A DNA stretch of 44,980 bases, filler included, from Streblomastix strix (taxonomy: Eukaryota): the NCBI GenBank assembly GCA_008636045.1. It is 2 parts of 2 records of this genome, joined end to end, with 100 filler letters (N's around TTAATTAATTAA, not from the genome) between each part and the next. Parts side by side here need not be neighbours in the genome. Positions count along the whole stretch, not along the records: positions 22,543 to 44,980 come from SNRW01000322.1; 1 more part is not named here. One strand, given 5' to 3'. The position numbers and the translations under genes are program-made. Under the pieces are notes generated by a model. The model was given only the letters and a program-made list of their open reading frames with translations. It was not told where the DNA came from and made no database searches. Of this stretch, positions 9,424-44,980 are shown one piece after another; position 1 is the stretch's first letter, and every line of letters starts with the position of its first letter.

Positions 9424-10605
9424 TCAATTATTGATTAAGAATTAACTTTTATAATTAACAGGTAATGAATTGATATGTTCAGAAATATACTTACAATAAT
9501 ATATAGGCAATTCAACTTAATCAATAGGTCCATTTGTTCGTAACAGTTTACATATTACATTGCCATTCTTATAAGCAATAAATGTTGCAAACTCATTGAA
9601 ATTTCTTCTAATTTTGAATGTTTTTATTTTTGTTCTTCAATAATCTAGATGAATCATAATTATATTTCCAGCTCTGAATTCGAATAGATGTTACTATGAT
9701 TATTGTTGTTTAGCCTAGTCCAATTATGCTAACTTATAGCGTATGAATGATCCTTCTAAATCTCGAGATTATTGTATTTATGTTGGTGAATATTTATTAT
9801 CGAATGCTTCATGCTTGTTGTTATTGTATATCATTACTATTTATTACATTAAATTATGATTAGCCATTGAGTTACTATCCTCTCCAAACCCATCTCTAAT
9901 CGTTCTAATTATTCTATCCACTACTCTATTATGATGTGTAAATGGAGATGAATTGAAATATAGCATTATATTATTATCCTTACAGAATTTTTTAATTGTA
10001 GTTCCAGTCAAACCTTTCTCTCCATCTGATCGAATATTATTAACATATTATGTATTAATTAATTACGTTAACGCATTCTTTAATTGGTTAGCTGATTTAT
10101 CAATTATTGGTATTACGACTAGATATTTTGTGTTAATATTGATAGCAAATAAGTATATCTATTCTCTATGCTTATATGTATCGTATGCTATTGCTAAATC
10201 AATTTCATATGAACCAGTTTTAGGTGAGAAATATGGACGTTGAAGCTTAGTTAGTGGTTTCAATTAATAATCTTATATTTATTCTTATCGCAATTACTTA
10301 TTCTTTGTTCTATATGGATTGATTATTATTCTCTATTCTTATAACGTGTTTTATATTTCTATTCTAGGCTATGGCTTAGGACGTTTGGGCAATAATTAGC
10401 GCTTAGGAACATTGTATTTCAATAGCTCTTATTTATATAGATCAAACCATTATAGTATGTACTTACTTCCATATTTAATTAAGCCTGCATTATCTATAAA
10501 TTCTTATGTTTCATCCTTGCTTCTGGTTATGTGCATATTTCTAATGAATACTGGTAAAGTCATCGGTTAAAGATTACGCGCGAGATGTTCTATATTATGT
10601 ATCAT
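9424..10605 (-). pseudogene. Retroviral-type (rve) integrase of Polinton-like element 1
   Basis: RPYFSPKTGSYEIDL (D 10198-10200), YLFAININTKYL, NNIRSDGEKG (D 10024-10026), HNRVVDRIIRTIRD (9916-9918), IYNNNKH. Single in-frame TGA at 9637-9639. An alternative start lies at 10536. Confidence 0.88.
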
Positions 10606-10723
10606 ACATTAATCAATCTCATCAATATCATCAGTATTATACATTTTCTATGCAAAAATAAGATGCAGTTCACTGCATTCACACTACTGCACTTCAATGA
10701 GCATTTCATGCCCGCTGACAAAG

Positions 10724-11275
10724 TCAGTGACAAATCTTGCAATCACATGCATATTTCAAAGCTGCTTTACATACAGCAGTGAGAATCTCATGCCAATTTA
10801 TATCGATTTTCTCTAATTATATCGCAATAAATTCTGTTGTGTTTGAAGGTTATAGCTCGAATAACAGATACATTTCATTAACGCAAAAATAAATTATTGT
10901 CACTAACGTTTTAACTAAATCTTCTAGCTAATTTATATAATTATCTCGTATTTCTCTATATTCTTTACAAGCATTGTGAAGCTTATTTTCGACACTGCAC
11001 TCTGCATTCATCCAATGTATTTCATCTTGTGTTCTTTTTTTAAGCAACATTCGCATTTCATAAGCAGTATCACTATGTTCTTCATCGAAACATTCTAGAT
11101 CCTTTTTATTATTTATTTTCGATAATCCTTTAACTTTTTTCTAGCATTTGTTATCTAATTTATAAAAACTTCTGTCACAGCTATCGAGAATTTTCGGTAG
11201 CTGCACGGATAATTCATATAATTACTTGTTTTATTCGAAGTTTTGATCTAACGCATTTATGAGTTTGTTTGCCAT
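10724..11275 (-). CDS. Viral hypothetical protein (183 aa, helical, Cys-rich C-terminus)
   Basis: Code-6 ORF MANKLINALDQNFEQNKQLYELS...KYACDCKICH*, packed between pPolB and the integrase. The true 3' end may be frameshifted. Confidence 0.55.
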
Positions 11276-11303: not shown

Positions 11304-14300
11304 TCATTATTTAATTTGATAAATTTTTGAATTCAATCCAAAGATATAGGGTGCGCAACTCTGATTCTCTAGTACAATCATTTTTGAATGAGCTCCAGAT
11401 ATATCATTCTTTGACATAGATAAGTTGCTCATTATTTTATTCTTTTATGCTAATATTGTATTAGTAACTCTCATTATTTTTCCTTCTTTAATATTATCTA
11501 TAAATGTCTATTCATTTATTTATGTATTTTATCGTAATATAACACCTTTCGATACTAATGACACATCACCACATTCATCGTTAATGATATAATTTTAAGT
11601 GATAATACTATGCAATTTAATCATTATTTTTCGAAATGAACCCCTAATATCTTCCTCTGATTATCTTTACTGAAGAAGAATCCTTTAGTTTTATCATAAA
11701 ATTCTTAATCTTTAATTATGACATCAAATCGTTACTCTGAACCTCTATTCTTATCACCACTTATCGCTAGTGTCAAGCTATCGGTATCTAATTATATTAT
11801 GTGCATCTTCGTTTGGTCGAATGCTTTATACAAGAAATTATATATGAAATTGATGTAGAAATATTTAGCAGAATCTAAGGTGAAGTATCCTACTTATAAA
11901 CAGTTATTGCATCTACAATACTCAGAATCTACTTAAACTGCATGCAGATTATCTGTTATTTCTATATCGTGATAATGTGATCCAAATAGATGGGACTAGA
12001 ATGTATAATCATCATCAAATAGTCTTATATTACTATATTTTTCACTGTTTAATATGTCTCCTCAAAAAGCTGAATTCAAAATTAGCTTACAAAAGGTTGC
12101 AAGACCATCATTCTTCTACGATTTAGCTTCAGCATGCTATTGCATAAAATCCTTAACGAATCCATTAAATTTATCATGTTTACTGAATGTAGTTACTGAT
12201 TTAATTTCATCAATAATAAAGTAGAATTGATCTATTAAGATCCATAAATAATAGCAATTGAAACTCATTACTTCATGATGTGTATCTACTAAATTTGTTA
12301 ATTTTCTTTCAATTTTATCTCTTGGCAAGTTACTATCAACTAAATGTTTATACATATATTTTCCGATAGTCTCTTCATTAACTGGTATATCAATGTTTCT
12401 GATTATTGGACCAAAACCAATGCAAAAATTAATATAATTTTCATCAATATGTCCACGAACTTGTGCTATGAATAACGGTACGGATTTGCGTATTTATTCA
12501 TCTTCCGTAAACCTATTTGAGCTGTAAATTATCTCATTACATCTATCTTAATCTACTATATATTCAAGCACTTATCCACACATGAACATCTTATGGCAAG
12601 TTTATCGGATAAGCGGATACGATTCTGAACTCATTATACTCGCATACTAGCTATCAAAATCTAACTAAATAATATGTGTCATTATATGTTCTGAATCAAT
12701 AGAATATACACATTTTTTCTCAACATCATATTCTAGATGATTAATCCTTGTTTCTCCAGCTACATTATATCGATGCAGCACATTGCTCAATCCTCCAGTA
12801 ATATTTTTTCTAATTATCTGATATACTTTTTGGTTCACTAATGTCACTGGTAGTTACTTTAATAAGCTATATTTTCTTAATTATATCATTAGTTTCATCT
12901 ATTTTTCATCACGATTACCTTTATACTTATTGCAGTACAAACAACATGGAAGTACATTATCTTTTGAATGACTTAATTCATTATCAATTCTATCTAATGT
13001 AGGGCGATTTTTCCAAGTGAATTTTGATTGACAGATATAGTATCTCTAATTTTCGAATATTTCTTTAAAATATTCATAATCATCAATGGTTACGCTATTG
13101 CTTGTATATCTTTTTTTCTTCTAATCTTATTCAATATAACTCTCTACTTTAGCTCTCTAATATGGTATAGTAATATTAATGGGTTTATCTGTATCTTCTA
13201 CATTATAGTTTCCATTCATTTCAAAATCATCATATGCACTGGAATATATAATCGCATTGGCGCATTATGACATATTAAACATAAATAGCATATCGATCTT
13301 ATATTTGAACATCATCTTGATTAAATTATCGATAGGTTCAATCATAATAGGTGTATCTTATACGTTATAATATCTTAAATAATCCCATCTAGTTGCGTAC
13401 TTTGCTGCTTCGACAAAATATTCTTAATACTTCGCTTCATTTAATGATTTATTCTTCAATTTATTATCGAATGCTTCTCTAGGAAATGGCTCAGGTTTAT
13501 CTAGTTCTGTAGCATAGTTAGTAACGTTGATAAATTCATGTGGAAATCGACCTTTTTTCATAATTGACATTCCTATATCTCGAACAAACACTTTAAGTTT
13601 CATCTTGGTACAATAGATCAATGCGTCTACGAATCTTAGTTAAATATGTGTATCCTTATGTCGAACTGTTATCTATTTAGCAACGGTTCCGCTACCTATA
13701 TGTTTAACGATTTTCCAATTCTTTGATTTCAAATTCTTAAATACTAATGATACATCGAACTTAGCAGAATTGAATCCTATCACTGGCACTTCAAAATGTT
13801 ATGGAATGCTCTCATCTTCATACTTATTATCTTTCTTTATTTGCTTCGCTTCTTCGAATACCTAGTCTAACCATTAATCCAAATAATTAGCTTATCGAAT
13901 ATCGTAACAGAATGAATGTATACCTGATTTATTCTTGACAGTAGATGCGATACAATAAGGAATAAGTTATGATACAACCATTGATTCTTCTCCATAATTC
14001 AACTAGATGAATTTATCAAATGTTTCTATGTCATATGTTATATAATATTCAGTAGGCTTAAACTCATTTTCTCTACCATATACGAATAGGTATCTATAAG
14101 TAACGTTACTAAGTATGTGCGGAACGAATGGACGAGCAAATTTCTCCAATATAACTTTCGTCACTATTTTACAATTGTTTTTCTTACATTTTTTCATATG
14201 TCTTTTCATATCTCTATTTATATTAGGATTTGATGTCTTGAACGCCTATAATTTACATATATCACAATAACGATATCCAGTTAGTGCCTAAACATCAGAG

Positions 14301-15661
14301 ACATATAATAAATGTGCATTTACCCCATTATTCATGAGAAGCACATTAAAGTCTCTCGTTGATGTTGGACGTTAATAATGATGGATAGCGTAATAATTTT
14401 ATTATTTTTCATTATCTCCATATGTAAATACATGCACATTAACCTATTCTTTATCGATGAATTCATCTACATCAGTTGCGAAATTGAAGCCTTAATATGA
14501 ATCATCGAATTCTTTTCCATAAATTCTTTTAAATATTCTCTTTCCTTCAGCGATTCTAGAACCATCTTTCCATCTTTTTTCCTTTGAGTTAGGCATAGTA
14601 ATGAATGAATATGCAGTAAAGAAACATAGATTCTATTTGCATTCTACATAGTAAATTTCTCTTCATTTGATGTGTTTTTATAATAATAGGATAGCAGCAT
14701 TCACCAATGAAAATTTATATACTCATATCATTACTGAGAATATTGCTACAATTTTTTAATGAGTATCCTCTTATGTCCTCTCTTACATATTTGTAATAAC
14801 GTCACGCATATAATGCTTATATTCAACGATATTCTCTTATGATTTTATGATTAATGGAACTCTTCTTTCAGGGTTAGCATCTACTGGAAGTACATATTTA
14901 TAACTAATCTTCTATTCATTTCCATCATATTCAGCTGTTTCAATTATTTTTCCAAAATCAGCTCTAATTTTGAATGCAGAACGCTATTATTGTCGATATA
15001 TTTGATCAAGAAATGTATCTAGTTAATCTAAATTTGCTAGATTCCTGTAATATGGTATTGTAGGTTTCTCTCTTGGATCTATGTTATTATTTACTTAGAA
15101 TGATAGAGTTTTAGTATTATTATCAAATCTTTCTAGAGCCTTATTCTTTACTATATTAAATTTAGCATCATCAGCTGCATCACATAGAATTATAATGTTA
15201 TTATCTGCAACTTAATGGAAAGGTTTATTCATATATTTTTAATGCAGTTCGTCCATCTCTTCTTCATGAGTTTTGAACATTGAATCTAGGTTTAAATTAG
15301 GAGTATTATGAAATTCTTCTATAGCTTAACGATTATGTATCTCATAAATATGTTCCATCTAGTGCTCATGACGTTATTCCTGCTATGGAAATTCTTTCTG
15401 AATTAGCTATCTCATTTTTGTTTTCATTTATTCTCTTTGTTATTATATTTGTGATTCCTATTCTGCTAATTATTTTTCAACATGTTCTATTATCGCTAAT
15501 TCAACTGCCTGCTCATCGTTTCTTTTTCCAAAATAATTAATTTACGTTAATATTTAAGATAATTTTGTACGTTAATCCTTTTCATTTATTGGTAAAATTG
15601 TATTTGGATCAAACAATCTAATTAGCTCTTATACTTTATCTAGACGAATTTTGATTGTCAT
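11304..15661 (-). pseudogene. Protein-primed family B DNA polymerase (pPolB 1) with TP-like, vOTU-like, zinc-finger and HNH/EndoVII-like domains
   Basis: ExoI ITYDIET, ExoII GFNSAKFD, RKNITGGL, motif A LDFDSQYAS, motif B KLILNSAF*G, motif C QLDTDS (DTDS 11777-11788). TGAs at 14723, 14663, 12062 and 11621 and a frameshift near 11595. Confidence 0.93.
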
Positions 15662-22442: not shown

Positions 22443-22542
22443 NNNNNNNNNNNNNNNNNNNNNNNNNNNNNNNNNNNNNNNNNNNNTTAATTAATTAANN
22501 NNNNNNNNNNNNNNNNNNNNNNNNNNNNNNNNNNNNNNNNNN
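22443..22542. other. Artificial contig-joining spacer
   Basis: 44 N + TTAATTAATTAA (standard-code stops in all six frames) + 44 N = 100 bp. Confidence 0.97.
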
Positions 22543-23233: not shown

Positions 23234-23240
23234 TCATAAC

Positions 23241-23318
<78 letters not shown>

Positions 23319-26300
23319 ATAGGATTGCGTGGAGAATAAAGAGGAGTTTTCTGTTATTATACTTATTATTATGTTAATTAAGGAATGAAAGGTACTATTT
23401 ATTAAACTTATTATAACTAATTTATATTATTACTCATAATAGGCATATTCCCTTATAATGAATTTATATTCAAGTCATTATTTATATTAGATTAAATGTT
23501 CCCAATATTTTATTTGTTTTAGTTTGATGCAGTATTCATTTAACTAATATCATTTATATTATTGATTATTTATTGATTACTTATTTAGTTAGATAAATTT
23601 AAATACTATTATATCGTTCTTGGAGTTGTTTCAGGAGAAATAATTCTTTTTGCATTAATTAATTATTATTACAATTCAATTTATTAACCTATTTATTCTT
23701 CATCTTATATTGTAGGGTATTATTATACAAAAGAAGTAAATTATGGAGTTATAGATGAATATGTTTAATTTTGAAGGTTATTTTATATTTTATTTTATTA
23801 TAATTTCACAAATTTTTTCAATGATGTCATATTTTATGATTGTAACTTTTATTATGATAAAGTTTATTGAATTTATTATAATAATAATTAAGAAGAAGAG
23901 TTAGTATTTTATTTGGATATTTAAATATTCTCTCCATGGATTATTAAATATATCAATTATTTCTCAAGCATACTTAATTTATAAACAGATTGTGGACCAG
24001 ATGTAAATAATTACTATTTATCCAACAACTATTAATAAATTAATATTTGATTTAAAGTTTCTTATAAATTTAATTATTAGTACTGTTATTTGAATTATTA
24101 GATTTCATTACTTATTTGGATAGAATATGGTGTGAAAGGATCTTATTATAATTATAAAACGCCATATGGTCCTAATGAATAATAATAATCCAATATAATC
24201 TGTCTTTCTGTCATATGCAATGCTAATGCTAAACGAATCGCTAAGTCTAGATATAAAGATGATGATATTTCATTATCTATTTATTGCTATTATTCTTATT
24301 ATTATTATTCAATTTATTTTTAATATTCTTCAAATTGTTATTGTTATTGTTATTGTTATTCTTCTGTATTTTATTACTAAATTAAGTTTAATTGTTATAA
24401 AAATAATTAATACTATTACTCTCTTTCCAATTTTTATTGCTCTTACCGTTATATTTGTGCCTAATTCATAATTTAAGCAGTTATAGGCCCAGGAAACGTC
24501 TCGGAGAATTATTATGATGTTTGAATCATAATTATTAATTCACTCAAATGTTGCGCTGTTATTCCTTTCACTTCTCCATCTGATTCATTGAAATCATCTC
24601 CAAACAAATCTTTTGCTAAAAACTTCATCAATTAATCGTTCATTAGCATTGTATAGCACATAACATCTTCATCTATACCCAGTTATCCTATTAATGAATT
24701 TATTTATGCATGATATTATGTTTATATTAAATCTTGACTTAATATATCAATCCCTATTTGAAGCCCATTCAAAATATTTGTTTGATCTTTCTACATTTAT
24801 TATAAATAACTAATTATCTTTCTACAAATTTCTTCATTTTGTGTAATATGATTTAATACTTATAATGATTATTTAATTAATTATTCATTTCTTTGTATTT
24901 TTCTCATTTCATCTTTTTCTTCTTATGTCATTTCTCCTCGATCAAGTTCTTCAGACCATGCCAACCTCATTCTGAGCGATTTTAATACTTGTTTCTTAAT
25001 TGAAAGAAGAAAATACAAGGCTTCATTTCTTTAGTTATTTAGACGTATAAGTAAGAAGTATACCAATAATACTATCAATATGGTCATTATAATTCCAAGA
25101 ATACCCAAAATAAGAGCTACAATTAAAGCAATGTCATTTTCTCGTGCTAATTTCTATATAAGTTCGATAATCTATATTCTAAAACTCTAATCGTTCACAG
25201 TAGGTCCATTCATCATTATATTAGAGAATATATCAAGAATTGAATCTTTTGTTAACAATTAGGTTAAATTAGCTATCTAATATAAATTGTACGTATATCC
25301 ATTAATTGCATTCATCAATGTTTAAGTTTAGGGCCACTATTGAACTAAATTTTCATTTTCATGAATTGCTAAGAATGTTGTTAATTCTCTGCTCTATAAA
25401 TCAAGAAGGTCACTTTATTTCTTAAATATCTATCCAATTGTTAAGTTATGCAATTATCTGGATTAAACCATCAATTTCTCTCTTACTTCTTCTTTTTACA
25501 AAAATCCTTCAGCAAAAGCAAAATCTCTTTCATGAAATAAATAAATTTCATACAGCTTTGCATAATACGCTAATTCATTATTTAGTTTGTTAGCTGAACA
25601 TAGATCATTCAGTAATTAAACATGTGATGAAGTATTATTAACATCAGATAATATTTATAAAAACAATCCAACTCCAATGAATAAGAAAATAACAACAGAA
25701 AATGGGGCAGCATATTTAAGAATAAGAAACCATACATCACCGTTTGTATTAAACATTCCTTATATTCCTTATTCTCCAATTCCTTATTCATTATTGCTCA
25801 TTCCACTTCCATCTCTTCCTTCTTCATGAATTGATCTCGGCTTTCTCGCTCCTATTTAATTCATTGTTCCTCTTCTTCTTCCTTTCCTTATGTATTAATG
25901 CGATTATAGTTTTGATTCTTAAACTATTTGATCAGCTTTTTTGAACATTAATTGTGCGAAGTTGTCATATCTGAATATATCTGTTTTCAAAGATGCATAT
26001 CCTCTTAAAACTGGAATTGAATACGGATGTGTCTCAAGAAGAGCTTAATAATGCATTTCAGATTATTTTTCATTCTCAATTAATTCATCAACTAACATTG
26101 ACATTTGAGTTACATCCATTTCATCTTATGAAAGCATCGCGAGAACACTGTTTAATTTCTATTTAGCTTCAAAAAAATTCTATTCAGCTTAAGACAAATG
26201 ATTCTTATATCTGAATATCGAAAGAACATCAGCACTTTTTAGATCTGCTCCTGAATTTTCTTATTCATATATCTTTGACATATAGAATATAATCCATCTA

Positions 26301-29113
26301 TTATCAATAGTGGCACCAATTCTTAGAGCAGTAGCTAATTATCTAATTGCAGCTGTCCAGTCTTTCAAGTAATGACAAAGGAATAATGCATAATGAATTC
26401 GAAGTGATGGATGTTTGGGAAACCGTTTTAAACCTTCCTTATATAATCTATCTGCAAAAAGAATATAGTCTTTTCTTTTTCTAACTTCTTTATTCCATAG
26501 AAATCTTACACCTGCATCGATATGCGAAACATGCTTAATCTTTGGAAGAGCATATGGAGGTTCTAAATGAATTATTTTCTTGGCCTAATTTTCAATATGT
26601 TGTTGAAGAGCTTTCATTTAAACAACAGATGCCATAGTGTTCATTCTTTATCTCAATAAATTCTAAAATGCATCATTCACATCATGTTTTGAATGTAATA
26701 CAGGAAGAATGTATTAGAATTAATCTTTACTGTGATTGCTAATAATATCATTAGAATTGTTTTTAATAAGCATTGAATCTTTTCCCCTTTATGAATATTA
26801 TCGGTTCAGTTTCATTTTTGGAGAATTAAGAGATAATTATTTGGAAATTTAAGATTAAATTGGTTGAATTTAAGAATATGATTGTCGTTACGATTAGGAT
26901 TAATTTTAATCTAAATGAAGAGCAGGAACAAAGTGAAGTGGAGGAACACTCACTTTTGGCTGATCATATTTCCTTAATTAAGATGAAGAAATCGATTATT
27001 TCAATTTATTAATTTGACTATATTCGTTATTTGGTGAAATGTCTTCAACTTCTAGTTTCTATTGTTAAGATTTTTATTGAATTTAACTATTGCTCTATTA
27101 TTCCTTTTTCTCTTCTTTTAAATTTGACATATGCAAATTATCATTATTAGAGAGAAGTTTAATTCTATCAATTTCTGAATTATAATCGCTTTAAATAAAT
27201 TCAACATTCAAACTCTTTATTGGAAGAGGGGCAACTTTAATTCCTTTCCTTTTACCTTTTATTTCATTATCTTATTATTTCTATTATTATTTTTATTATT
27301 AATTATCAGATTTATTCATCGCTTATTAATCAGAATGGTGGAGTTGAGCCATGTTAAGAGTTTAAGCATATGGAAGTTATTATAATGATTGTAAATGGAT
27401 TCTATTACTGAGTTGAAGTGAAGGTGTAAGTGACAAAATTGGAGATTTTTCACTTATTTTTTCATCTCTTTTCTATTATTTGTTATCTGTTAAATTTTTC
27501 TTTATTTAAGAAGTTTCTTATTATTAAATCTAAGCATTATATTACTTTTAATGTATTCTCTCACTCATTTCCTTCAGTTTCTAAGTAATATTAGATGAAA
27601 CAGAATATTCATTTATTGGTTATATCAGATCATATTCAGATGAATCATCATCACTCTCTTCTTCATCTTATTATTGAGGATAGAAGCTTAATTGTTTTTC
27701 GAAATTGGCTTTTATTGTACTAGCAGTAACATGGTGGTTTTAATCATATTTATTCTTCTTGGCCGTTGCAATAATCTCCAATTCTTTGTCTTATTTTATT
27801 CTTGGTTTATTATAAAATGTGTATTTATTATCAGATTGTTCATCATCTGTATCATTCTTATTAACTCGTATTCTTTATCGATTCATTTCCATTTCTTTCA
27901 TACTTTTCAATTCATATACAAATCCTCTATATGTTGAATAGTAGCAATCTTCTACTTCAACATAGAAAGGCTTTTTCTTCTGAACAAATTCTATATCTGC
28001 TTTCACTGGTATCTTGAAGTCATATGTGATTGCGCATCTGGCTAAATATATCTTCCTCGAATATACGCCAACGAAGAAGGTCAAAAAGAATGAGCAAATA
28101 ATAAATGTTGACCAAAATAATGTAATAACAAGAGTGCCAGCTCCTTCAGTATAAAGTGCAATCCATGAATATAATGATGCCATTACTGTTACTCCATATT
28201 GTGCAGATGCAAAGACATTAGTGTGAAGTGAGTGATACGGTTGCATCCACATTATATATAACATGCAAAATATAAATCCTACACTACAACAGATAGATCT
28301 CAAAACAAAAGAGCTTGACACCCATTGTGATTCTGCTGTTAATATACATTTTGTTGCCATTTCTACGAATTCATATCTGCCAGAATGTGCAGCAAGAAGA
28401 ACATCATGTTTAACATCGAACTCGTAGAGGAATAAGATGACGATTTATGTAAAAGGAACGAAGACTACAAGAGTAAAAAATGAAAGGGAATTGAATACAG
28501 CTTAGGCTCCTTCCCAACAAGGAACTTCAGGGAAAGCATCGCACATTCCTTTTCCTGAACTGAAGTCACAATCTACTATCATGAATATAATTGTAATCAT
28601 TGGTTAATATCCCCAAGTAACTGATGCATGTGTTACAATTCGTAATAAACGAACAAGAGGTAAAGGAACTCTAGAATCACCTTTGGCAAAAACAAACATC
28701 AATGCTACAAATGTAAATACAGAAGCCATGACTAATACAAACAGAACAGTGAATAGAATGTAAGATAGATTAGGTGTAGTTGTAAAGAATTGAAAGTCCA
28801 TGTAATCTAATACTCCCATAATAAATCCTTTTAATGGTCCCATAGGCCATGCTACAATTTCTTGTATTGGCAATCCAACACATTGCAGTATCTCAAAAAG
28901 TAATGGTGCATATGTCATGATAGTTTCCTCATTGGAATCGTCTTCTCCCTTCTCCATGGCAAATAATGTACCTTATTAATATATATATTTCAATAAAATA
29001 AATTACATTATAATAATCTTAATTTAAAGTGAAAATTATATACCGAAGAGTGCTCTATCCCAAGTTTCAAAATTCAGAAGTATCTAACCCTTATCAGAAG
29101 AGTTTTTGTTCAT
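23234..29113 (-). CDS. Host TmcB/TmcC (tiny macrocysts)-like multi-pass membrane protein, ~1935 aa; intron 28972-29043
   Basis: Exon 1 29044-29113, a GT-AG 72-bp intron, then a 5738-nt exon with no in-frame TGA until 23234-23236. N-terminal TM bundle (VDC...PEVPCW...HSGRYE...QPYH), TPR-like region (ADRLYKEGLKRFPKHPSLRIHYALF...ETHPYSIPVLRGYASLKTDI), two further TM segments and a Q-rich tail. Confidence 0.85.
23243..23317 (-). repeat. (TAA)25 microsatellite encoding the C-terminal polyQ of the TmcB-like protein
   Basis: TTA x25 on the + strand, in frame as TAA=Gln just before TAG TTA TGA. Confidence 0.9.
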
Positions 29114-30418: not shown

Positions 30419-33400
30419 ATGATATCTAGACTTACAAAAGAATAATTAGGTTCATTGGATAGACTTATTGGTTTTGTTGGCATGCATGACTTATCAAATG
30501 AAACTGTATTACATGCACGATTTGAGATAGAAAATGCTCTTAAGTATTATTAAGTTGCAAGACCTGATACATTTTCTAGTGATTTGAAGCAAAGAATTGT
30601 CGCGGTAGTTCAACAGCGATAATAAGAAGAATTGCAAAAGACATCATAAGAACAAGCGACATCGTCGTCAGCGACGCATGCAACGACAACGCCGGAAGAT
30701 TAAAATGAAGTGCAAGATGATTTGCAAACCATGACATCAAACATTACAATAGAATAATTAGAAACATTGAGTCGACTTATTGGTTTTGTTGACGTGAATG
30801 ACTAATTTGTAACTGAATCATCTTTACGTTCTAAACTTCAAAGGGCTTTTTAGTATTACAATGTACCAGGATCTTACATATATTCAAATGAATTGAGGCA
30901 AAGAATCGTCGCAGCAGTTCAACAATGATAATAAGAAATTTTAAAATTGTAAGATTAAGCTGTTTAACGTCGTAGATAAGCTTTGTTACCTGCTCATCTT
31001 GATGAATAAGCTTAGTTACCAGCTCATCTTGTTGAATAAGTCTTACCAGCGTAAGAAAAGGAAAAAGAAAATGTTAAAAAACCACCTAAATAAAAGAAAG
31101 ATCCAATCAAAATAAGGTATTTATTAGATGGTTCTAATCTTTCTCCTTAATTTATTATGTAATAACTGAAAAGACTAGGATATGACGATGATGACGCCGA
31201 TTTTATTTATAATGATCTACCTGACTTAGTTACATTTGAATTAGACAAATACGACTATGATTATTCTTAACCGTCAACTGAAGCTAGAATAAGAGAATTT
31301 TTAAATTAATGGTTTACAGAAAAACCATAAGAACCAGTGGATATTTCAATCTTGTAGCCTCTTTCAAGTGAAGCTCTTGAAAATATACGTTAAAGAAAAA
31401 AGAAACCAATACAAGCTCCTGATTAGGAAATAGATGATTAAGAAATTTTGTCGCAGAAGATTGTTTCGCAGACTTTAGATGATTAAGATGAATAAGGTGA
31501 AAAATCGATCAAATTTGAAACTTTAAAAGAGGATGCTCTTAAATAAAATCATCGTGAATAGTTTCAAAAATATCTTGATGAGAAATATAAAAAGATAAGG
31601 GAATAACATAATAATATCGAAGAACTGTAACTACAAGCATTTAGACTCTTAGATGAGGAAATGAGAGAATAAATTGAAGTGAATGAAGGCAGTGATTTAG
31701 AATATGTGGAACCGATAACTCACTAAGGTGAGCTGGCAACAGAGTTGCTACTAAATGTGGATGCATTATTATTATATAAACCTATTGATTCAGATAAATT
31801 TATAATAGCATTACTTCAAGCTCATGCTGAATATTAAGATCCAACTAGAATTAAATAAAGAAGAATTAAAGATGAACCGACGATATTCTATTATAATAAT
31901 AAAATTACTTCATTAGAAGATATATAAAATCATTTAAATTTTGTATTCGATTAAGAAAAAATAAATCATTTTAAGATTGCTATCGATTTTGGTTATATAG
32001 TTGAAGAAGCTATTACTAATAATGACGGAAGTAATAAAACAGCAGAATATACTATCAATTATCCAAGATAGAATTTAAATACTATATCAGCAAAAAATAT
32101 TAAGAAAATAATTACTTCACAAGCTGATATGGATGAATTTAAAGAATATGTTCCAACAATTATAATAAATGATTAAGAGAGGACACAAGAATCAACTCAT
32201 CATAAGTTTATTGCAATATTTTCTATGGTTGTAGTTGTTTATCGATATCCTCTAACAGGTAAAGCAATTCCGGAATTATAAAAATATATTAAGCGTCGTG
32301 AAGTTCATTTTATTGATTCGTAATATCCTAATAATTGTGTGTTTGAAGCATTATCATTCTTATCATTGCCAGACAAAACGTAAGAAAAGAGATATAAAGA
32401 TCACGATAGAGTTGCTGAAGGAGTTAAATTAATAATTTAATATTATAGTCTTTAAGGAAACTCTGCGAAATGCAAAAATATTTAGAAATTTATCAAGGAA
32501 TATTAAGGTTTTGATTTTGTAACTGATAGCAAGAAATTTGCTAAATTATTTAATATAAACATTTGCATTTATGCATGCAAAGAGATTCCAATATAGTCAG
32601 ATCAAGGTGACACAATAACGGCATATGACTAATTCTACTTAGATTAGATTATCGAACCAGATAAAGATGATGCTGACGATGATGAAAAAGAATATTTAAA
32701 TGAAGAAAACAAATTATAATTATAAGATTTTAATTTACTGTTGCTTTAACTTAAAAATAATTCTCATGTTTTATTTGTATCTGATCCTGAAGCATTAACA
32801 GGTTATAGTAATTGTCCATTTTGTAAACAACACAGTGTTCCAGTTAAAAATAAGAACCGTAATGCATAAAGAGATTTTGAAAGACATGTTGCAAAATGTT
32901 AATAAAATAATGGTAAATAAGTAATATTATTAAAATCTCTTTCACTAATTGCTCCTCATATATTTGGAAATAAGACTTATTAATATCTTATGGCATATGA
33001 AAGACTAGATGAATTTAAACCAACAAGATATTTTATAACATATGATTTTGAAACTGTTCCAAGAATAATTAATTTAGGATATGGAAGTAAATCAGTTATA
33101 AATGGCATTGAGGTTCATAACTCTTAATAACATACTGTGCTCGAACCGTTATCAGTTGCTTCAACTATTAAATCAAAAGCAGGAATTAAGAAAATATATT
33201 TCGATTTACGTTAAGAAAATTTTATTGAAAAATGGCTTGAATAAATGTTCGAAGAAGCTAAATAATTGAAAGAAGATAACCAATACGATGACCCTGAAAT
33301 ACCATATGATATTTCAATTCCTGTTCTTGGATATAACTCAGCGCATTTCGATATGGTATTTGTAATCAGATATTTAACTAATCCATTATGGCACATTACA

Positions 33401-35863
33401 AGTTATTTAGGAGATTTTACACATATTAAGCGAGTAGAAGTTAAACATAAAATTACTGGAGTAACGTTATAATTTTTAGATGCTATGCTATTCGTAACAA
33501 AAGGAAAATTAAAATAGTTTGCGGCAGATTTTGACAATGGCGGCAAAGATGACTAAAAAGGAGTATTTCCTAATGATGCTATTAACATAGACAATTATGA
33601 TGAGATCTTATCAAAATCTGAACCATTCAGTAAAGAAGATTTTGATAACAAACTTCGAAAAGAAACCATGACAAATGAAACTTATCAAATTTATCTTGAA
33701 GACTGCAAATAATTTATGAATAGATGGGATTATCTACAATACTATAATGAACAAGATACAAGTATTATGATAAAACCAATCGAAAATTTAATTGAAATGA
33801 ATTTTGAAAATGGGATTGATATGTTTAACTATATTTCTATGGCAAGTTGTACCAACACTATTAAGTATAAAATGGCATGTAATGATTTTGATTAGAATGC
33901 ACGTTATACTAATCAAAATGATTCTTCATTCATCAACTTCTCTCCATTTAATCTTACTGAGGAATATTGGGAATAAAAAGTAAATTCATATAAATAATAT
34001 GGCTTAAGAGCTAAAAGAAGCATCAAAAACAATGTATAAGAATCTGATTTTGAACAATTTGTATAACTGATTGAAAAAGGATCTTGTTGGTTTTGTAAAG
34101 CAAGATTTACGAATGAAAATCGACCAACACTTGACAGAATTAATAACGCAATTGGTCACTCAAAAGATAATGTAAGATTAGCATGTGTATATCGTAATGT
34201 TGCAAGAGCTAATAGAGATGATAAAATAACTCGATTAAAGATATAACTTAAAAGATATTATTTAGCAAAAGGTTTACCAATGCCAATTACTAATGAAGAT
34301 ACTTATCACATTTTGAGAAATGGAATTACAGGAGGATTAGCAAATGTTATTCATAGATATAATATTAAAAGCGAAACTCATATTAACAAAATGAAACTCG
34401 AAGAAAGAAAAGTATTAATCTATGACTTAGATCATATCATGACTCATATAACTGGAGTTGATAAGAATTCACTATATCCATCTATGTTTAGTAGTCTAAA
34501 ACATGATTTTATTAAATACACCGGAAATTAAATTAATATGCCTGGTTATGAAATCAGTCGAAACACATGCGTTACAGATAAATAAAAAAATTAAGCAATG
34601 GAAACTATTAATAATACACTAAGATTTTCATCAAAATAATCTGATATTGATAAAGTTACAATGTTCGTTGCAGAAGTTAAAGGACATATCGATGAAGAAT
34701 ATATCAATGATTTTATTAACTTTCCACCATTAATTAGAAAATATAAATACAAGGCAATGGAATCAGTTATTGGAAAATATATGCATGAACATTAAAAGAA
34801 AAATGGATTACCAATTGATAAAGAAGAATATAAACTTACTTCTTTACTCTCAACAATGGGTTAATTTATGAGTTTTTATTCATATTATCTTTGGTTTCTT
34901 ATCGATGATTGTCATTTTATAATCGATGAAGTTAAATCTGTTATGACATTCTCTAAACATCTTGGATTTGCACCATTTGTGAAACATTTTAATCACTAAC
35001 ATATATAGGCAAAGTTAGAAAAGAATAAAGGACTATAATAATATATTAGGATATTAATGAATAATTCATATGGTTGTGATGGTATGAACTAAGAACACTT
35101 CTCGCAAATAAAAATATGTGATAAAAATGAAACATTTAGAGCACTTCTCAAGGATATCTTTAAAACAGATCGTAAATTAAATGAAAATGTATATGCAGTT
35201 GAATTTGAAAAGTTAAAATTTAATTGCAATACTTGCATTTAAGTTGCATTTGCTGTTTTAGATTGTTCCAAGTACTAGGTTATGAATTTCTATTATAATT
35301 TCTTATGTAGATGTCTTGACTAAAATCGATTTCATTATGTTTATGGTGATACAGATTCAATGATGTTAGCTGTTGCTGGAGATCCGAATTAAGATTATAC
35401 ATAAGGATTCTCTGCAACAGTTTCCGATAAATAATTTTACGATAAAAACTTTTATAAATTCTTCCCTGATTCCAAAAAAGATATATATGATGAAAAGAAA
35501 TTGCTTGGAGTTGCATATGAACATTGCGGCTCGTCATTAACTGCTTTAGCACCTAAGAATTATTGGCTTTTAGAAGATCTTGATAAAAAGAATCCCGAAA
35601 CAGTTAAACTAAAAGGTCTCAATTTAAAATCTAATCCACAAATTAATAAATAAACTTATGAAGAAAATATTAAGAAAGGAACAATAGTTAAAGATAAGAA
35701 TATGTCTCTTAAATAACGTGCTGGATAAATGAGTTAAATTGAAGTTCTTAAAAACGGAATAACAGGATGTCATACAAAAATGGTTACATTACCAAATTAA
35801 TGTTGTTGTCCATTTATTTATTAGCTAACTGCTCACAGTTATAAGTGCCAAGAGCTGTAATGA
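30419..35863 (+). pseudogene. Protein-primed family B DNA polymerase (pPolB 2), 1815 codons, near intact
   Basis: One frame throughout with a single TGA at 30926-30928. Motifs ITYDFET, GYNSAHFD, YYNEQDT, HNH-like CWFC...PTLDRINNAIGHSKDNVRLAC, GVDKNSLYPS, RILMNNSYG and YGDTDS (35342-35359). Confidence 0.95.
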
Positions 35864-37057: not shown

Positions 37058-37469
37058 AGTAGTATAGTCCCGGGAATCTTGCGCTCAAAATAGTTAAATT
37101 AAAGGGCTAATTTATCCATTAAGGCCTCAAAATCGTGCTAAAATAAAGGAAAAGAACTGATTTTTGAGTAATTTAACCAATGTTTTATTTATTTCGTGGG
37201 AATATGTTATTTCAATAATATTTTTTTACATTAATTCCTACAGTTTTTGATTAAAATTGACGTAAAATTAATGAAACACGTAATTTTATGGGGAGAAATG
37301 TATCATTATCACTATCCCAAGCCGAAAAACGAAATAATGTGGGTACAAATGTATAATTATTCAAGAATCAGTTCTTTTCCTTTGTTTTACCACGTTTTGA
37401 GGCCTTGATGGATAAGTTAGCCCATTAATTTAACTATTTTGAGCGCAAGATTCCCGGGACTATACTACT
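37058..37469. mobile_element. 412-bp non-autonomous mini-Polinton-like element with ~115-bp TIRs
   Basis: 37058-37173 and 37355-37469 are near-perfect inverted repeats starting AGTAGTATAGTCCCGGGAATCTTGCGCTC and ending GACTATACTACT. No target-site duplication seen. Confidence 0.75.
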
Positions 37470-37523
37470 TTTTCCGACTATAATAATTACCTGAAGTTAA
37501 CTCTTCCCCAAACTCCTAACTAA

Positions 37524-37896: not shown

Positions 37897-40800
37897 ATGA
37901 TGCATTCTAATAATTTATGATTGACCTTGACACTAGATTAGATAACTAATTTTATTAACGTTAACCTATTACTCCAATAACTGATTTTATATAGATAAAG
38001 TAGTAATTAGAGCCCAAATTATAGTATATTCTAGCCTCAATTATTTGAAATTAATTAGTAAATCGAATCAGCACGCAAACGTAAATTATTAAAATTAGCT
38101 AATGACAGGGTACTAATATTAGCTCATCCTGCAGATCTAGAAGAATTTACTAAAGTACTCAATGATGCCATACTGAATTATTAAGATTAGAATCACGTTG
38201 AACGAAACCCAATAACAATAGCTCATTATAATAATAATTAAATAACAATCTTATCAAATATATACGATTTCGTCGATTAAATTCACACTTCAATGAAGAA
38301 TAAAATATATAAGCTAGCTATTGATTTTGGATTTATGTATGAGAGGAAAGAAAGAGATAAAAATAATGACGAACGTATTACTTATGGCTACATTATCCCT
38401 AGAGAATAAATGACAGAAAGAAGAACCCCGATATTAATACGTAATTAATAAGATATTGAACTATATAAAAATTTTTTTGAATCATTAATTATATCTATCC
38501 AAGAGCGTACATTAACTGATACAAAGGAAAAATTTATTGCAATTTATTCAATGTGCGCAAGAACATATCTACTTCCAATCAGTGGTAAATCAATTCCGAG
38601 TATCAAGCTACATTTATCCAAGAAGCGCTAATGCCTCAGATACGTTAACTCACCTTTTCCTAATGCTTGCGTACTGGAAGCAATTGCGAGATATTAACTT
38701 AAAGATAGTAAGGAAAAAGATATAGTGATAAATAAGTACATGCAAAGATGAAGGAAATAGGTACTCTATTTTATGGGGAATTTAACCCTAGAACATTTGA
38801 AGGATTCAATTACGCAACAGATATATAATTAATTCATAAACACTTAAATTTATCTGTTAACTTATTTTCCTATGAACAGGACGACAGTTTTTTTCGCTAT
38901 TATTTAGCCTAATCTTTTCCAATTGAAGGAGATAACGAAATAAATTTATTACTTATCTAATCTGAGGAACTAAATGGTATTAATATCCACACACTACAAA
39001 TGACAGATAAAGAACGCATTACCTGACTATTATTTTGTCTAATTTACTAAAATCATTGTTTTCAAGTTGATTAACTCACTAAAGAGAACATGGCTAAACA
39101 TACAGATAAATGTCGACTGAACAAAGGTTAAATTAAAAAATAAGTTAAGTTGGATTACATTCAACGTCCATTCGTACCACATATCATGTAAAATAAGACC
39201 TATCTCTATCTATTAGCAAATAATAGAACTAATGAGTTTAAGTCAACTTAATACTTTATTACTTATGATTTCGAAACATATGAATAAAAAATTAATACTG
39301 ATTTTTGTAATGATAGTAAATTAATATCAAAATTAATCCCCCTATCAGTAGTCAGCACTATTTATTCCTCTAAGGGTACTAAATCTATTTATTTCGATAT
39401 TCGAACTAATAACTTCGTAAATTTATGGTTAGATACTATATTTAAAGAAGCTGTTTAAATTAAACACGATAATAATTATGATGATGAACTTATCCCCTAT
39501 TCAATCGAGGTTCCTATCTTTGGATATAATTCCGCTAAGTTTGACATGTCCTTATTATTCCCATATTTATCCTCAAGCTAGTGGAAAATAACTAGCTATT
39601 TATGGATTTCTTAATTCTGTAAATAGTTAATTATTTCACACAATAATTTATCAGTTAAACTTAAATTTTTAGACGCATTCTTATATGTTGCGCCACCAAT
39701 GACATTGAATCAATTTGTTATCAACTTCTCAAACTAACAGTAAAGTAAGGGTCTAATTCCTTACGATCTAATGGTAGATGACTATGAAAAGTAGCTGTCT
39801 TAATCTATCCCCTTTAATTAATCCGATTTTAATAACACGTTGAAAAATAGTTCCATAACAGATGAGGAATATTAATAGTACTTACTGGAATATAAATAAT
39901 TTAGCAATAGATGGGAATATTTGAAACATTATAATATACTTGATACCTCTTTAATGATTGAACCAATAAAAAATTTAATTAAGCTGTTCTTTGAATATAA
40001 AGTAGATATGTTTTAATTTATCTCGATGGCCAGTTGCGCTAATGCGGTCAAGTATTCTATGCCTTATAACGAATTTAAATTAGATGGCGATTATAGTATC
40101 AATACGTTTGATCCACCATTCTATCTCACTCCCTAATATTGGAAAGCTAAAGTAGAAGGGTATGTAGCCTAAGATAAATTGGCCCATAGACCTATTGATA
40201 ATAACGTGAAGGAAAGTGATTACGAAAATTTTCAAAAATTATTTAGATAGCCTTGTTATATATGTAAAGATAAATTTACATTTAAAAACAAGCCCACATT
40301 AGACTGAATAAATAATTCCTTATCTCGTACTATAAATAATGTAAGATAGTGCTGCTTATATTGTAACTAGGTTAAAAGTAACCATAATAAGCAAGAGATG
40401 AAACTATTGATATAATTAAAAAAATATTATTAAAAATATAATTTTCCTACAATAATTAGTAATCAATGAGTGTACTAAACCTTAAGAGATCAGATCACAG
40501 GTGGATTGTGTAAGGTAATGAACCGTAAAAATATTGCTAATTAAACTAAAATAAAAATTAGTACATTAAGATAAGGTGAAAGTTATTGAAACAAATAATG
40601 TTGTTACTAATATTATAGGACTTGAATTTAATTCATTATTTCTAAGTGTAATTAGCAGTTAATTTCACCCTCTAAATCTATAAACTAATCATAAATTATT
40701 TATGGCAGGGACAGTTAAAGAAATTATTAATGTTAATGAATAAAATAAACAACGTTGTTTAAATATTATTAATTCCCCAACAAGATACACACTTGCGGGT

Positions 40801-42017
40801 TAATTACTTATCGCAACAATTAAAGGACACATATCGGATATTAATTCACACATTAACTTTCCACCTATTCTGAGGAATTTATCATATCAAACTAACGAAC
40901 AAACAATTGGAAGTTATACCTATAACTTTATGAAAAATAATAATTTAATGGAAGATAAAAAAGAAAGTAAATTAATTTAATTATTACCCACTCACAATTA
41001 ATTCATGTCCTTCAGCTCCTATTATTTATGGTTCCTGATTGATACATGTGGGTTTGTAATTGATGACATTAGTTAACTTATTTTATTTACCAAACACGAT
41101 TAATTTAATACATTTGTTAACACATTTATGAATAGGCGATATAAGCGATTAAATCTAATAATAACGGGTTGGATTAATTTTGTAAAATAGTGATGAACGC
41201 TAGCTATGGGTCAGATGGGATGAATACAGAGAAGTTTAGTAAAGTAAAATTAAGAACAAAGCGGACACACTTATTTCACATTTTACCAGTAATTTTATGA
41301 ATAAACGTTAATTGGACGATAATTTTTATACTGTCTAATTTAATAATGATAAATGTAAATGTACAATACCATTATAGGAAGCATATTTTACACTAGATAA
41401 CGCCAAGTATTGCTATTTTAATTTCATACATAATTTTATGTATAAGTGCTTGGATAAAAATAGGTTTTTTTTTTGAAGGAGATACAGATTCAATGTACTT
41501 CGCGGTTGCAGGCGATATTAATTAACCGATTAATTAGGATTTTAAATATATAATTACTGATCAATAATTTTATGATACGAACTATAAGTATTATTTTCCA
41601 ACAACAGACGGCCTAATTGAATAAAAGAAGTTATTAGGATTAGCGATTGAAAAAGAAGGTGATGTAGCGATAGAGTTATCCTCAAAAAATTATTATATCA
41701 ACGCTACTCTTTAGAGCGGCAACAAAGTTGCTAAGAACGAAATAATTAAATTAAAAGGAATTAATTTATCATAAAATGTTATAACTAAATAGAATATATT
41801 AGATACGATTGATGGAAAAATAATGAAGTGTGTAAATACTCGTTTAGATTAGAATGATGGAGTTATGTCCAAATTATCCCTAAATACGAATGACCTAACT
41901 GGCATTCACACTAAAATAGTATTATTACTCAATAGCTAATTAGCCGTACCATTCATATACCAACTATCAGCTACAAATTATATAGGTTTTTAGCCAACAA
42001 TAAATGCTGATGAATGA
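37897..42017 (+). pseudogene. Protein-primed family B DNA polymerase (pPolB 3), decayed
   Basis: YKLAIDFGFMYE, NACVLEAIA, ITYDFET, FGYNSAKFD, HYNILDT, CYICKDKFTFKNKPTLD*INN...CCLYCN, GLEFNSLF, KIVMNASYGSDG, EGDTDS (~41475-41492), GIHTKIVL. Several frameshifts and TGAs, and the start is uncertain. Confidence 0.9.
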
Positions 42018-42160: not shown

Positions 42161-42795
42161 GCTAATTCTGGGTCAGATAAAAGGCAGATTGCACCAAAGA
42201 AATAAATTTAAAAAAATGGAAATTAATTGTTGAGCTAATTCAAACATTAATCAAGAGGGTGATGGTGTAATTTAGCGACTCCAGATAATAATATTAATCA
42301 AGGGGTTAATTTTCCCCCATTACTTTTTATCACATATAAAAATGTCAGGATCATGTTGCCACTATAACGAATAATCCCTAAATTATAATGTAATTGGTAA
42401 TTTATGTTACAATAGAGGATATCTAACATCTTATTAGGGTAAATTAATATTAATATTTACACCTTAATAATATTAGTAGTTCAAAAAAATATATAACGAT
42501 ATTATGGAAACATTTGAAAAATAACGATAAGAGTACAATAATAATAGGTTAAATAAAATAATTTATCATTATCACTAGTGCTTCGATGAATGTGCTGATG
42601 AAATAAATTAGCGATAAAAATTACTTTAATTATTTTTGACTGCCTAAATTTAGACACACGATTTCTACCAACCAAAATTGTTTCCTTAAAATTAGCCCCG
42701 TATTAGCGTTAAAATTAGCCCAACAATTAATTTCCAAAAATTTTGAAAAAAATAAACAGCGGCGCAATCTGCCTTTTCTATGACTTAAAATTAGC
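42161..42795. repeat. ~85-bp inverted repeat pair (42161-42245 / 42708-42795) flanking a small ORF
   Basis: GCTAATTCTGGGTCAGATAAAAGGCAGATTGCACC...TGGAAATTAATTGTTGAGCTAATT aligns with the reverse complement of the right arm, GCTAATTTTAAGTCATAGAAAAGGCAGATTGCGCC...TGGAAATTAATTGTTGGGCTAATT. Confidence 0.8.
42342..42746 (+). CDS. Small hypothetical protein (up to 134 aa) inside the IR cassette
   Basis: MSGSCCHYNEQSLNYNVIGNLCYNRGYLTSYQGKLILIFTPQQYQQFKKIY.... AAAAATG start context. The C-terminus runs into the right repeat arm. Confidence 0.45.
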
Positions 42796-42811: not shown

Positions 42812-44754
42812 TTAACCTGCCATGATCATACTACCACCAATTTCTCCAATTACTTCTAAATTTAATATTTATGGTTCAGGGCATCATCAAATTTAATTCT
42901 AACAATTGAATCAAACAAGAAATGAACCAGTGATGTCTACGCAATCTATGTTGAAATAGAGTAGCTTCTAGTTCCAATAAATCCAGTGAAATTATATTAA
43001 TTTTTTCTGGTTGCAAAATCATTATCCAGAACATCAAAAATTATCAATAGTTCCATTTACAATATCATAATGGAGTATCATATATATATTAGTTCTAGCA
43101 CCTATCCTTGAACTATTATATCCTCTCATGAATGAGTAGTCAGTTGCTAATTTCCATATAAGCATAAATTTATTCAGATAATATGTTTTTATAACATTAG
43201 ATCCTATAAATAATGTTGTATTAAAAAATTTGTTATCTTATTACTCTGCAGGCCCAGTATCTTTGCCATTTTAGCAGTTCTTATCATTAATATTAATGTT
43301 CTCGAAAGTAAGTGAACGATAAAGATCAGATAGTGCTGATACAATATCCAAGCCAACAAAGCATTAAAAAATCGAACTATTTACACCTACAGTCAATGCT
43401 TCATATGGATTAGGTGTCGCGTGTTTTTGGTCAATGATTAAATGAATCTTCTTCAATAGTAGTAGGAAGAACCAAGTAGGATATTATTACATAACAAATG
43501 TTATAAATACACTTTTTATATTAAAGAATGACATTATCGTTTACATTTAATTTCCTGACATTGGATAATTAGTTGATTTTGTCTTTAATTCTTATGTTGG
43601 GAAATGTAATATTTTTTATGCTCTAATCATATCGATAATGGCCGTTTCATTCTCCATAGTGAAACATAAATTATGTATAGATAAATAATCAAAAGAAGCT
43701 GTATCAATCTATTATATACTATTCTTGGGGTCAGTATCGGCATCGTCCAAATCTTTACAATTAATCATTCGAACTGAATAGTAGATGTTTGCAGGTGGAT
43801 CACTATCATCTAGTAAAGTAATTATATCTGGTTTCTCCGCAGGTATCATAGCGTAAGCTAAACAAGTATCAAACGATCTGGATTTATTTAACAAACTACT
43901 TTTAGATCTTATAGGAAATCGGTCATCCAAAGTTATAAATATAATGAAGCATAGTTTCTAGTTAGTACAGTGAATTCATTAAATATCGGGTTAAATTAAT
44001 TCAAATCCATTACCCCAAAGAATGTAATATCTTTGGGATAGCGATAGAAATAAGCGGTTGTACCAGAAGCAGCAACAACTTCGGATAAATGTACATCGAA
44101 AAACACACCACAATGGCTTTTGCCTTAAACTATATTTTTTAATGGTGAAACAGTAACATTATTATTAACTGTGAGGTCAGATAGTGAATTAGAATAAATA
44201 ATAGCTTGTTCTCTAGTGTAAATAGAAGTTTTCCATAATTTTGTATTATCTCGACATATAGCTATTTATTATAATGGCCCACAAGCTGTTGAGAATACTA
44301 ACCAAAATTTAAGTGTTTCGCAAATATTATATTTTTGTGTTTCCTACTTTATATCCGCTGCTAGTGCTATTGTAGCTGTCTTAGTTCCATTAAAGTTTGT
44401 TCTAGATCTTGCAAATTCTGCGTTAGATAACGTATCTTATGTTAAATTTACTTTATTTAATTATATCCCTATAGTATTAGCGGGTATAGTAATTGTCCAA
44501 TTAACTTAGCAGGTCTAAACACAACAACATGTTGCACTACCTCTAGCCCCTAATGGAGCACAAGTTTATCTAGTACCACCTGAAGTTAAAGTATTTCTTG
44601 GCTAGTCAAAAAATTCCTATTTGGATAGTGTGAATGATTAAGGTTCAATAGTTAATGTTCTTAGCACTTCATTTAGTGCAGAATATGATGAAACATATTC
44701 CGAATGTGATGCATTCGATAAACGAGCTAAATAATCTGACGCGCTGAACGACAT
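42812..44754 (-). pseudogene. Putative double jelly-roll major capsid protein (frameshifted)
   Basis: About 645 codons rich in short beta-strand-like segments (FWLVFSTACGPLQQIAI, MDLNQFNPIFNEF, SLYLQLW, ITFPTQ, NKFMLIWKLATDYSFMRGYNS, VHFLFDSIVRIKFDD, LNLEVIGEIGG). Frameshifts near 43895, 43037 and 42881. The capsid call rests on size, composition and context only. Confidence 0.6.
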
Positions 44755-44786
44755 TTGTTTTAGTTTAAAATTTATTTAATCAATAA

Positions 44787-44980
44787 ATGTCGTTTTGGTC
44801 AGGGTTGAAAAATTTTAGTTCAAAAATATTACACGAAGTAACATCTGAAGCTAAATGGTTAGCTCCTGTTTTTCATAAAGTTATGGGTGCTGTTTCAGAG
44901 CCATTAGGCGCAATTAATCCAACAGCTGGTATGATAGCCAGAGGAGTAGGAAGTGCAGCAGGAATGGCAAATAAATTCCT
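44787..44980 (+). CDS. Adenovirus protein VI-like amphipathic (membrane-lytic) protein, truncated by the window end
   Basis: MSFWSGLKNFSSKILHEVTSEAKWLAPVFHKVMGAVSEPLGAINPTAGMIARGVGSAAGMANKF.... It starts 32 bp from the MCP-candidate ATG on the opposite strand. Confidence 0.65.
   Translation, partial: MSFWSGLKNFSSKILHEVTSEAKWLAPVFHKVMGAVSEPLGAINPTAGMIARGVGSAAGMANKF

Follow-up and report, generated by a model that had tools for sequence, protein, structure and literature searches.

The window, a stretch of 44,980 nucleotides from Streblomastix strix, consists of two pieces joined by a linker, N-TTAATTAATTAA-N, at 22443-22542. The N runs around TTAATTAATTAA are an artificial join, so genes on either side of it belong to different contigs. 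The second piece spans 22,438 bases, which is also the listed length of the contig of P0006, a mis-called protein encoded in the window; the contig therefore stops at 44980, inside a small open reading frame (ORF) whose final codons are therefore not recoverable from it; close relatives end ...KFLNR, and about three codons and the family stop are missing from the window copy. From the ATG at 44787-44789, the small ORF reads MSFWSGLKNFSSKIL..., and this reading is identical with or without genetic code 6 (0 affected codons). No in-frame ATG lies upstream of 44787 back to the preceding stop, and the peptide starts Met-x-Phe, in line with an earlier note on this DNA that described a stand-alone gene starting at its helix without a propeptide. 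The placement given there also holds: the ORF begins at 44787, head-to-head with a capsid gene that starts at 44754 (-), with 32 bp between the two. A or T occupies 29 of the 32 positions of this gap (44755-44786), which we infer to be a shared divergent promoter region.

Table 1. Features of the window, with positions counted along the whole stretch
Feature	Position	Strand	Remarks
Small ORF	44787..44980	+	64 codons, expected 67; stand-alone amphipathic peptide, truncated by contig end
Small-ORF residues 2-12	44790..44822	+	Motif common to virophage capsid tails and mastadenovirus pVI
Predicted first helix, residues 2-43	44787..44915	+	Amphipathic; conserved Pro45 break next
Intergenic gap between small-ORF and capsid start codons	44755..44786	.	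32 bp, AT-rich
Predicted double-jelly-roll major capsid gene, broken	42815..44754	-	Frame changes near 43900, 43030, and 42880
Fragmented protein-primed family B polymerase-like gene	39090..42017	+	Motifs at 39261, 39522, and 41472; no Pfam match
Open 1568-aa code-6 ORF	31157-35863	+	Family B polymerase exonuclease and polymerase motifs, internal HNH-like stretch (our reading)
Long code-6 host-like gene	23234-29113	-	Many predicted transmembrane segments, poly-Gln end; flanked by viral segments
Integrase-like ORF	9637-10752	-	Weak rve match, E 0.005; on the other contig

The two main pieces of the capsid gene are 87% and 71% identical to an intact relative (P0014), and a family search recovered 61 long relatives. 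The matches listed by Foldseek for a model of the intact relative are exclusively double-jelly-roll capsids (iridovirus MCP, Sputnik V20, mavirus MCP, hexon, p72, and Vp54; best E value, 8e-6), and the model itself is poor (pLDDT, 48.5). On this low-confidence model, the neighboring gene, proposed earlier as a capsid gene, encodes a double-jelly-roll major capsid protein. Streblomastix code-6 elements with such a capsid gene already belong to a Metamonada endogenous-virus group according to Bellas 2023 (PMC10120064), where we found no mention of the small gene. The window copy of the small ORF is probably a decayed relic, as frame changes and stop codons interrupt the capsid gene and eight residues of the peptide, of which three are Glu, are seldom seen in its subfamily. 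Because the capsid gene is broken, the real infectious virions deduced in the earlier note do not follow from this locus. Contigs from four termite-gut sequencing runs cover the region as many divergent copies, none of them spanning it, and the run search listed no RNA data set with it.

Elsewhere in the window, Pfam gave no match for the 1568-aa ORF at an E value of 0.01, and shorter or broken paralogues of this ORF lie at 12062-14596 (-) and 39090-42017 (+). The segment at 37058-37469 contains a 75-nt inverted repeat (96% complementary) with an inner 44-nt pair. A 48-nt motif is present at 37511 and 37598, with a further occurrence at 42729, immediately beyond the capsid gene; together, the repeat and the motif are possibly element ends.

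Single-sequence searches with the small ORF returned nothing useful in Pfam, PDB, or PHROGs. Relatives drawn from protein databases number 51 among 66 candidates in a short-protein search, with 41 to 92% identity, and 49 of the 51 are labeled Streblomastix strix, which points to this oxymonad, or a near relative, as the host. We aligned 37 of the 51 with the window copy (n = 38), after setting aside 14 calls that were extended or partial. The family peptides in this alignment measure 67 to 70 aa, and M1, F3, K8, N9, F10, S12, and K31 are invariant across the 38 copies, which were selected for Met-x-Phe-type starts. Retention of the motif in other copies had been set beforehand as a test, and LKNFGS is indeed present in 33 of 38 copies and the exact WSG[LI]KNFGS in 20 of 38. 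Profile searching of 1.84 billion representatives produced 96 matches, which include a third subfamily and a wider set of stand-alone proteins of 66 to 135 aa, plus a few unrelated repeat proteins. Standard-code relatives are found at two metagenome loci (L004 and L005). Nine further small-ORF relatives that use the standard code match the profile at 99%, a value that is partly circular because these proteins were recruited with the family profile itself. Length, start, and helix pattern are kept in all three subfamilies and under both genetic codes. Family profiles run against IMG/VR found no relative or chance helices only. The ESM Atlas holds two Preaxostyla clusters and, as a lead only, a 92-aa cluster at 0.87 in which Parabasalia records are few; further clusters without names score 0.90, and the nearest named cluster, a weak lead, is cecropin at 0.78.

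Several records vary the basic arrangement. The standard-code element at L005 carries a tandem pair of small ORFs (L005:5801-6281) that both bear the N-terminal motif of the family, along with genes that we read as ATPase, penton-like, and fiber-like. Streblomastix records P0118, P0121, P0125, and P0127 suggest an L005-like second small ORF. In P0198 (66 aa), a seven-residue leader ending in Gly-Gly precedes the motif, and its sequence makes this protein a possible intermediate still needing a protease.

Linkage of the small ORF to the capsid gene, on which the earlier note depended, extends well beyond the window. Among 38 informative records, all mis-called fusions with at least 25 residues upstream of the small ORF, the upstream part is the antisense of the 5' part of the capsid gene in 29 and its sense strand in none (0/38). 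Four capsid/small-ORF pairs on the same contig have adjacent locus tags by eye. Downstream extensions (n = 29) lead into a repeat-rich ORF that we label fiber-like in 13 records, a second short ORF in 3, same-sense capsid sequence in 2, and other sequence in 11. The two records extending into same-sense capsid sequence indicate that the relative orientation is not invariant. At L004, a capsid-like C terminus lies 285 bp upstream in the same sense (hhalign, 63%; HMMER E value, 4e-5). Many public "hypothetical proteins" (P0004-P0013 and P0128-P0205) are mis-calls that combine antisense capsid with the small ORF, and we flag the small gene as one whose merger with its neighbors is a common error of automatic gene calling.

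The peptide is Gly/Ala rich and amphipathic, as described earlier. Gly and Ala together average 29% across the family, and the mean net charge is +6. The hydrophobic moment is 0.39 for residues 2-34, versus 0.14 when shuffled (p = 0.0006), and 0.43 for residues 2-19, versus 0.20 (p = 0.012). AlphaFold places two helices at residues 2-43 and 45-61 (mean pLDDT, 72.5). Membrane disruption by the peptide is only predicted, from its amphipathicity. Gly2 occurs in 30 of the 38 aligned copies, for which N-myristoylation was considered; Phe after Gly2 is what we take to be a poor fit to the N-myristoylation consensus.

Much of the earlier reading rested on adenovirus protein VI (pVI). Human-type pVI (IMG/VR L012 and L023; Pfam MCPVI) reads ...SLWSGIKNFGS, and on these fetched sequences the reported identity of SFWSGLKNFSS at 8 of 11 positions is reproduced. 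Phe3 of the peptide aligns with Leu40 of pVI; the L40Q substitution lowers lysis, and the pVI helix also binds hexon, as described in PMC8310329. The Streblomastix profile matches pVI at 94.8% in hhalign over 15 columns (match range, 12 to 15 residues), while the wider family reaches 28.6 to 49% (28.6% over 14 columns), and the family profile finds pVI in the PDB at E values of 0.35 to 9. Pfam MCPVI (PF02993) matches none of the 38 family members (control pVI, E 1e-99), and no family profile matches pVI once the motif is removed. The motif is missing in 13 avi/siadenovirus-type pVI proteins; two of the atadenovirus type keep a partial motif, and two other matches of the same scan are unrelated. 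What stands of the adenovirus link is a match of 12 to 15 residues; it fails in that pVI is not the closest relative and that nothing persists when the motif is cut.

By sequence, the virophage capsid tail appears to be a closer relative of the small-ORF family than pVI. The first viral scan, unbiased and run with a single sequence, matched three contigs, each through the tail at the C terminus of a virophage capsid protein. One such protein (L002) resembles Sputnik V20 up to the mature end of V20 (E 5e-79) and then continues with Gly-Gly and the motif. Core motifs were used to fetch 29 virophage capsids, from which five incomplete sequences and one duplicate were dropped; all 23 distinct complete tails begin G|[DN][FW], 19 of them directly after GG. 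After removal of the three seed tails, hhalign matches these tails to the Streblomastix profile at 97.7% (50 columns) and to the wider family at 97.2% (51 columns). Trimming off the motif leaves the wider family at 89% over 42 columns (reversed control, 6%) and the Streblomastix profile alone at 1.5%. The residual match runs through a shared IP[HD]P turn, some form of which is present in 14 of 20 tails. Beyond the motif, this link depends on three bridging proteins, which score 96% to virophage and 60% to Streblomastix; without them, the match is 13%. Pairwise scores beyond the motif show a slight excess over shuffles for the virophage tails (23.3 versus 20.5) and an equal excess for pVI (22.3 versus 19.5).

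The tails themselves (L001:8435-10210, L002:4025-5866, and L050-L076) comprise a conserved helix-IPHP-helix unit and an Arg-rich end past the cut site. Mavirus MCP is not matched when the tail profile is run against the PDB, so the tails studied represent one Sputnik-related group. The tail profile also weakly matches RNA-virus coat proteins and a VP4. When the profile includes the cut site, pVI is its best natural PDB match, aligned across NGG-x-F (E 0.17); pVI chains make up 6 of the 11 PDB matches, and hhalign scores 90.5% against pVI, with a profile built without motif-selected seeds. Born 2018 (PMC6048507) describes cleavage of the mavirus capsid at such sites, places within the first fragment a predicted helix that is amphipathic and may rupture endosomes, and attributes assembly competence to the mavirus tail. 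At the sequence level, the Streblomastix capsid bears no resemblance to the capsids of virophages (0.1%), and its alignment found no relative in IMG/VR. A capsid-tail fusion is seen in none of the 61 capsid records; this and the lack of virophage-capsid similarity rule out an origin of the small ORF by simple splitting of the capsid gene of the same element. Complete capsid C termini end in Gly in 40 of 45 cases, a faint echo of a pre-cut end; the capsid-like ORF at L004 lacks a terminal Gly.

How far a short motif can carry these comparisons was gauged by a nine-residue pattern scan of IMG/VR. Its 44 matches comprise 36 pVI proteins (two confirmed by Pfam), 3 virophage tails, and 5 proteins that we call tape-measure-like, which is our reading of long repeat proteins. 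These five controls, chosen for the same motif, score 69 to 93% in hhalign, against 96% for pVI; with scores so near those of pVI, the pVI match alone is indistinguishable from convergence. The motif also occurs in portal-like and fungal repeat proteins, and in these, as in the tape-measure-like proteins, it is due to chance or convergence. Designed helices and fungal repeat peptides likewise score with the family profile.

Taking these comparisons together with the analogy to pVI, we think it reasonably probable that the small ORF is a free-standing, pre-cut virophage-tail helix that would work like pVI. On balance, we also favor its assignment as a gene of a Polinton-like virus, encoding a 67-residue cationic peptide that is likely packaged and membrane breaking at entry and that probably shares its descent with the virophage tail fragment. 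The shared gap would drive expression of the small ORF together with the capsid gene, and the peptide would be packaged under the capsomers, inside the shell, and freed on uncoating. Its Phe/Trp/Leu face would then insert into and rupture the host membrane, by analogy with pVI and with mavirus C1 of Born et al. Since the peptide begins Met-Gly-Phe, no viral protease would be needed. A broader proposal, which we advance tentatively and think somewhat doubtful, is that the pVI lytic helix, the cleaved virophage tail, and the small ORF are one ancient entry module that has moved among three states: in pVI, a separate precursor cut at Gly-Gly; in virophages, a fusion to the capsid tail, likewise cut at Gly-Gly; and in the small ORF, a gene that stands alone and is already pre-cut. 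If that proposal is true, a pre-cut gene would make the maturation protease unnecessary for entry.

The likeness to both pVI and the virophage tails could instead reflect an independently arisen lytic entry peptide that converged on a cationic amphipathic helix. The unrelated tape-measure-like proteins among the motif matches (5 of 44, at 69 to 93%), the scores of designed helices and fungal repeat peptides, and the RNA-virus coat proteins matched by the tail profile are all what convergence would produce. We nevertheless consider this origin unlikely, as the bridging members keep two ordered motifs and a 42-column match without the N-terminal motif, and P0198 retains its short Gly-Gly leader ahead of the motif. 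Distinctly unlikely, in our estimation, is that the small ORF is a direct pVI homologue reduced to its lytic helix. The exact core in 20 of 38 copies, the predominance of pVI in the pattern scan (36/44), the hhalign score of 94.8%, the partial motif in two atadenovirus-type pVI proteins, and the correspondence of the invariant Phe3 to Leu40 (PMC8310329) argue for such descent. These are offset by a match confined to 12 to 15 columns, PDB E values of 0.35 to 9, the 0/38 result with MCPVI, and the loss of all signal without the motif. The wider family drops to 28.6 to 49%, the motif is missing in 13 avi/siadenovirus-type pVI proteins, and the small ORF lacks a propeptide, PPxY, and the C-terminal cofactor peptide.

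Two further readings dispense with lysis at entry. The peptide could be an internal scaffold or cement that serves capsomer assembly or DNA binding and has no lytic role, which would fit the assembly competence conferred by the mavirus tail (Born 2018, PMC6048507), the binding of hexon by the pVI helix (PMC8310329), and the family net charge of +6. It keeps only the amphipathic part of the virophage tail, however, without the Arg-rich end; we judge a purely scaffolding role very unlikely, and scaffold and lytic roles are not exclusive. It is scarcely credible that the product acts outside the virion, as a membrane-active agent of egress or host manipulation, or that the ORF, although conserved, is an antisense by-product that does not function as a protein. 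The cecropin cluster of the ESM Atlas (0.78) is a weak lead toward a nonvirion product, but the small ORF does not overlap the capsid gene, and its length, start, and helix pattern are kept across three subfamilies and two codes.

Little is known of the way in which Polinton-like viruses and virophages cross host membranes, and the small ORF offers a specific candidate entry peptide that is cheap to synthesize. It would also provide a sequence link from the metamonad virion module, described as too divergent to place (bioRxiv 10.64898/2026.06.19.733378), to the virophages, as well as a testable origin for pVI. By itself, the small ORF is no proof that these elements still make infectious particles. 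Our literature search turned up no report of the small-ORF family, nor of any sequence relationship that joins virophage tails to pVI; subscription journals and supplements could hold one.

Membrane-active genes in the virion modules of mid-size DNA viruses are already known from published accounts. The Macc class (adomavirus LO6, adintovirus cupiennin-like, PLA2X, and GasderminX; MELD "VI") likewise consists of small predicted membrane-active genes in virion modules; moderate pVI matches are reported for adomavirus LO6, cupiennin-like genes are described for adintoviruses, and the "VI" label stands in a figure legend on MELD viruses. Macc is a functional label, called polyphyletic, and its likeness to the small-ORF family is one of description. 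Nodavirus gamma and picorna-like VP4 are likewise Gly/Ala-rich, helix-Pro-helix lytic capsid peptides, but they belong to RNA viruses and are cut from a capsid precursor; both are weak PDB neighbors that are not significant (E 1.1 for nodavirus gamma and 0.24 to 0.43 for VP4). Mastadenovirus pVI (PF02993) shares the WSG[LI]KNFGS core, which in pVI and the virophage tails follows an NGG-x-F protease site. However, pVI is a 233- to 279-aa precursor with a propeptide and further domains, and the likeness ends after 15 residues; the small-ORF peptide ends at 67 to 70 aa, without the propeptide, downstream body, PPxY, or C-terminal protease cofactor of pVI. Unlike the virophage tail, the small ORF is a gene in its own right that starts with its own Met and mostly stands head-to-head with a capsid gene of unrelated appearance, and its peptide has neither a preceding protease site nor an Arg-rich end. 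Like the first fragment of that tail (mavirus MCPC1), the peptide has an F..GLK.FG.K start, a long amphipathic helix, a Pro turn, and a short second helix.
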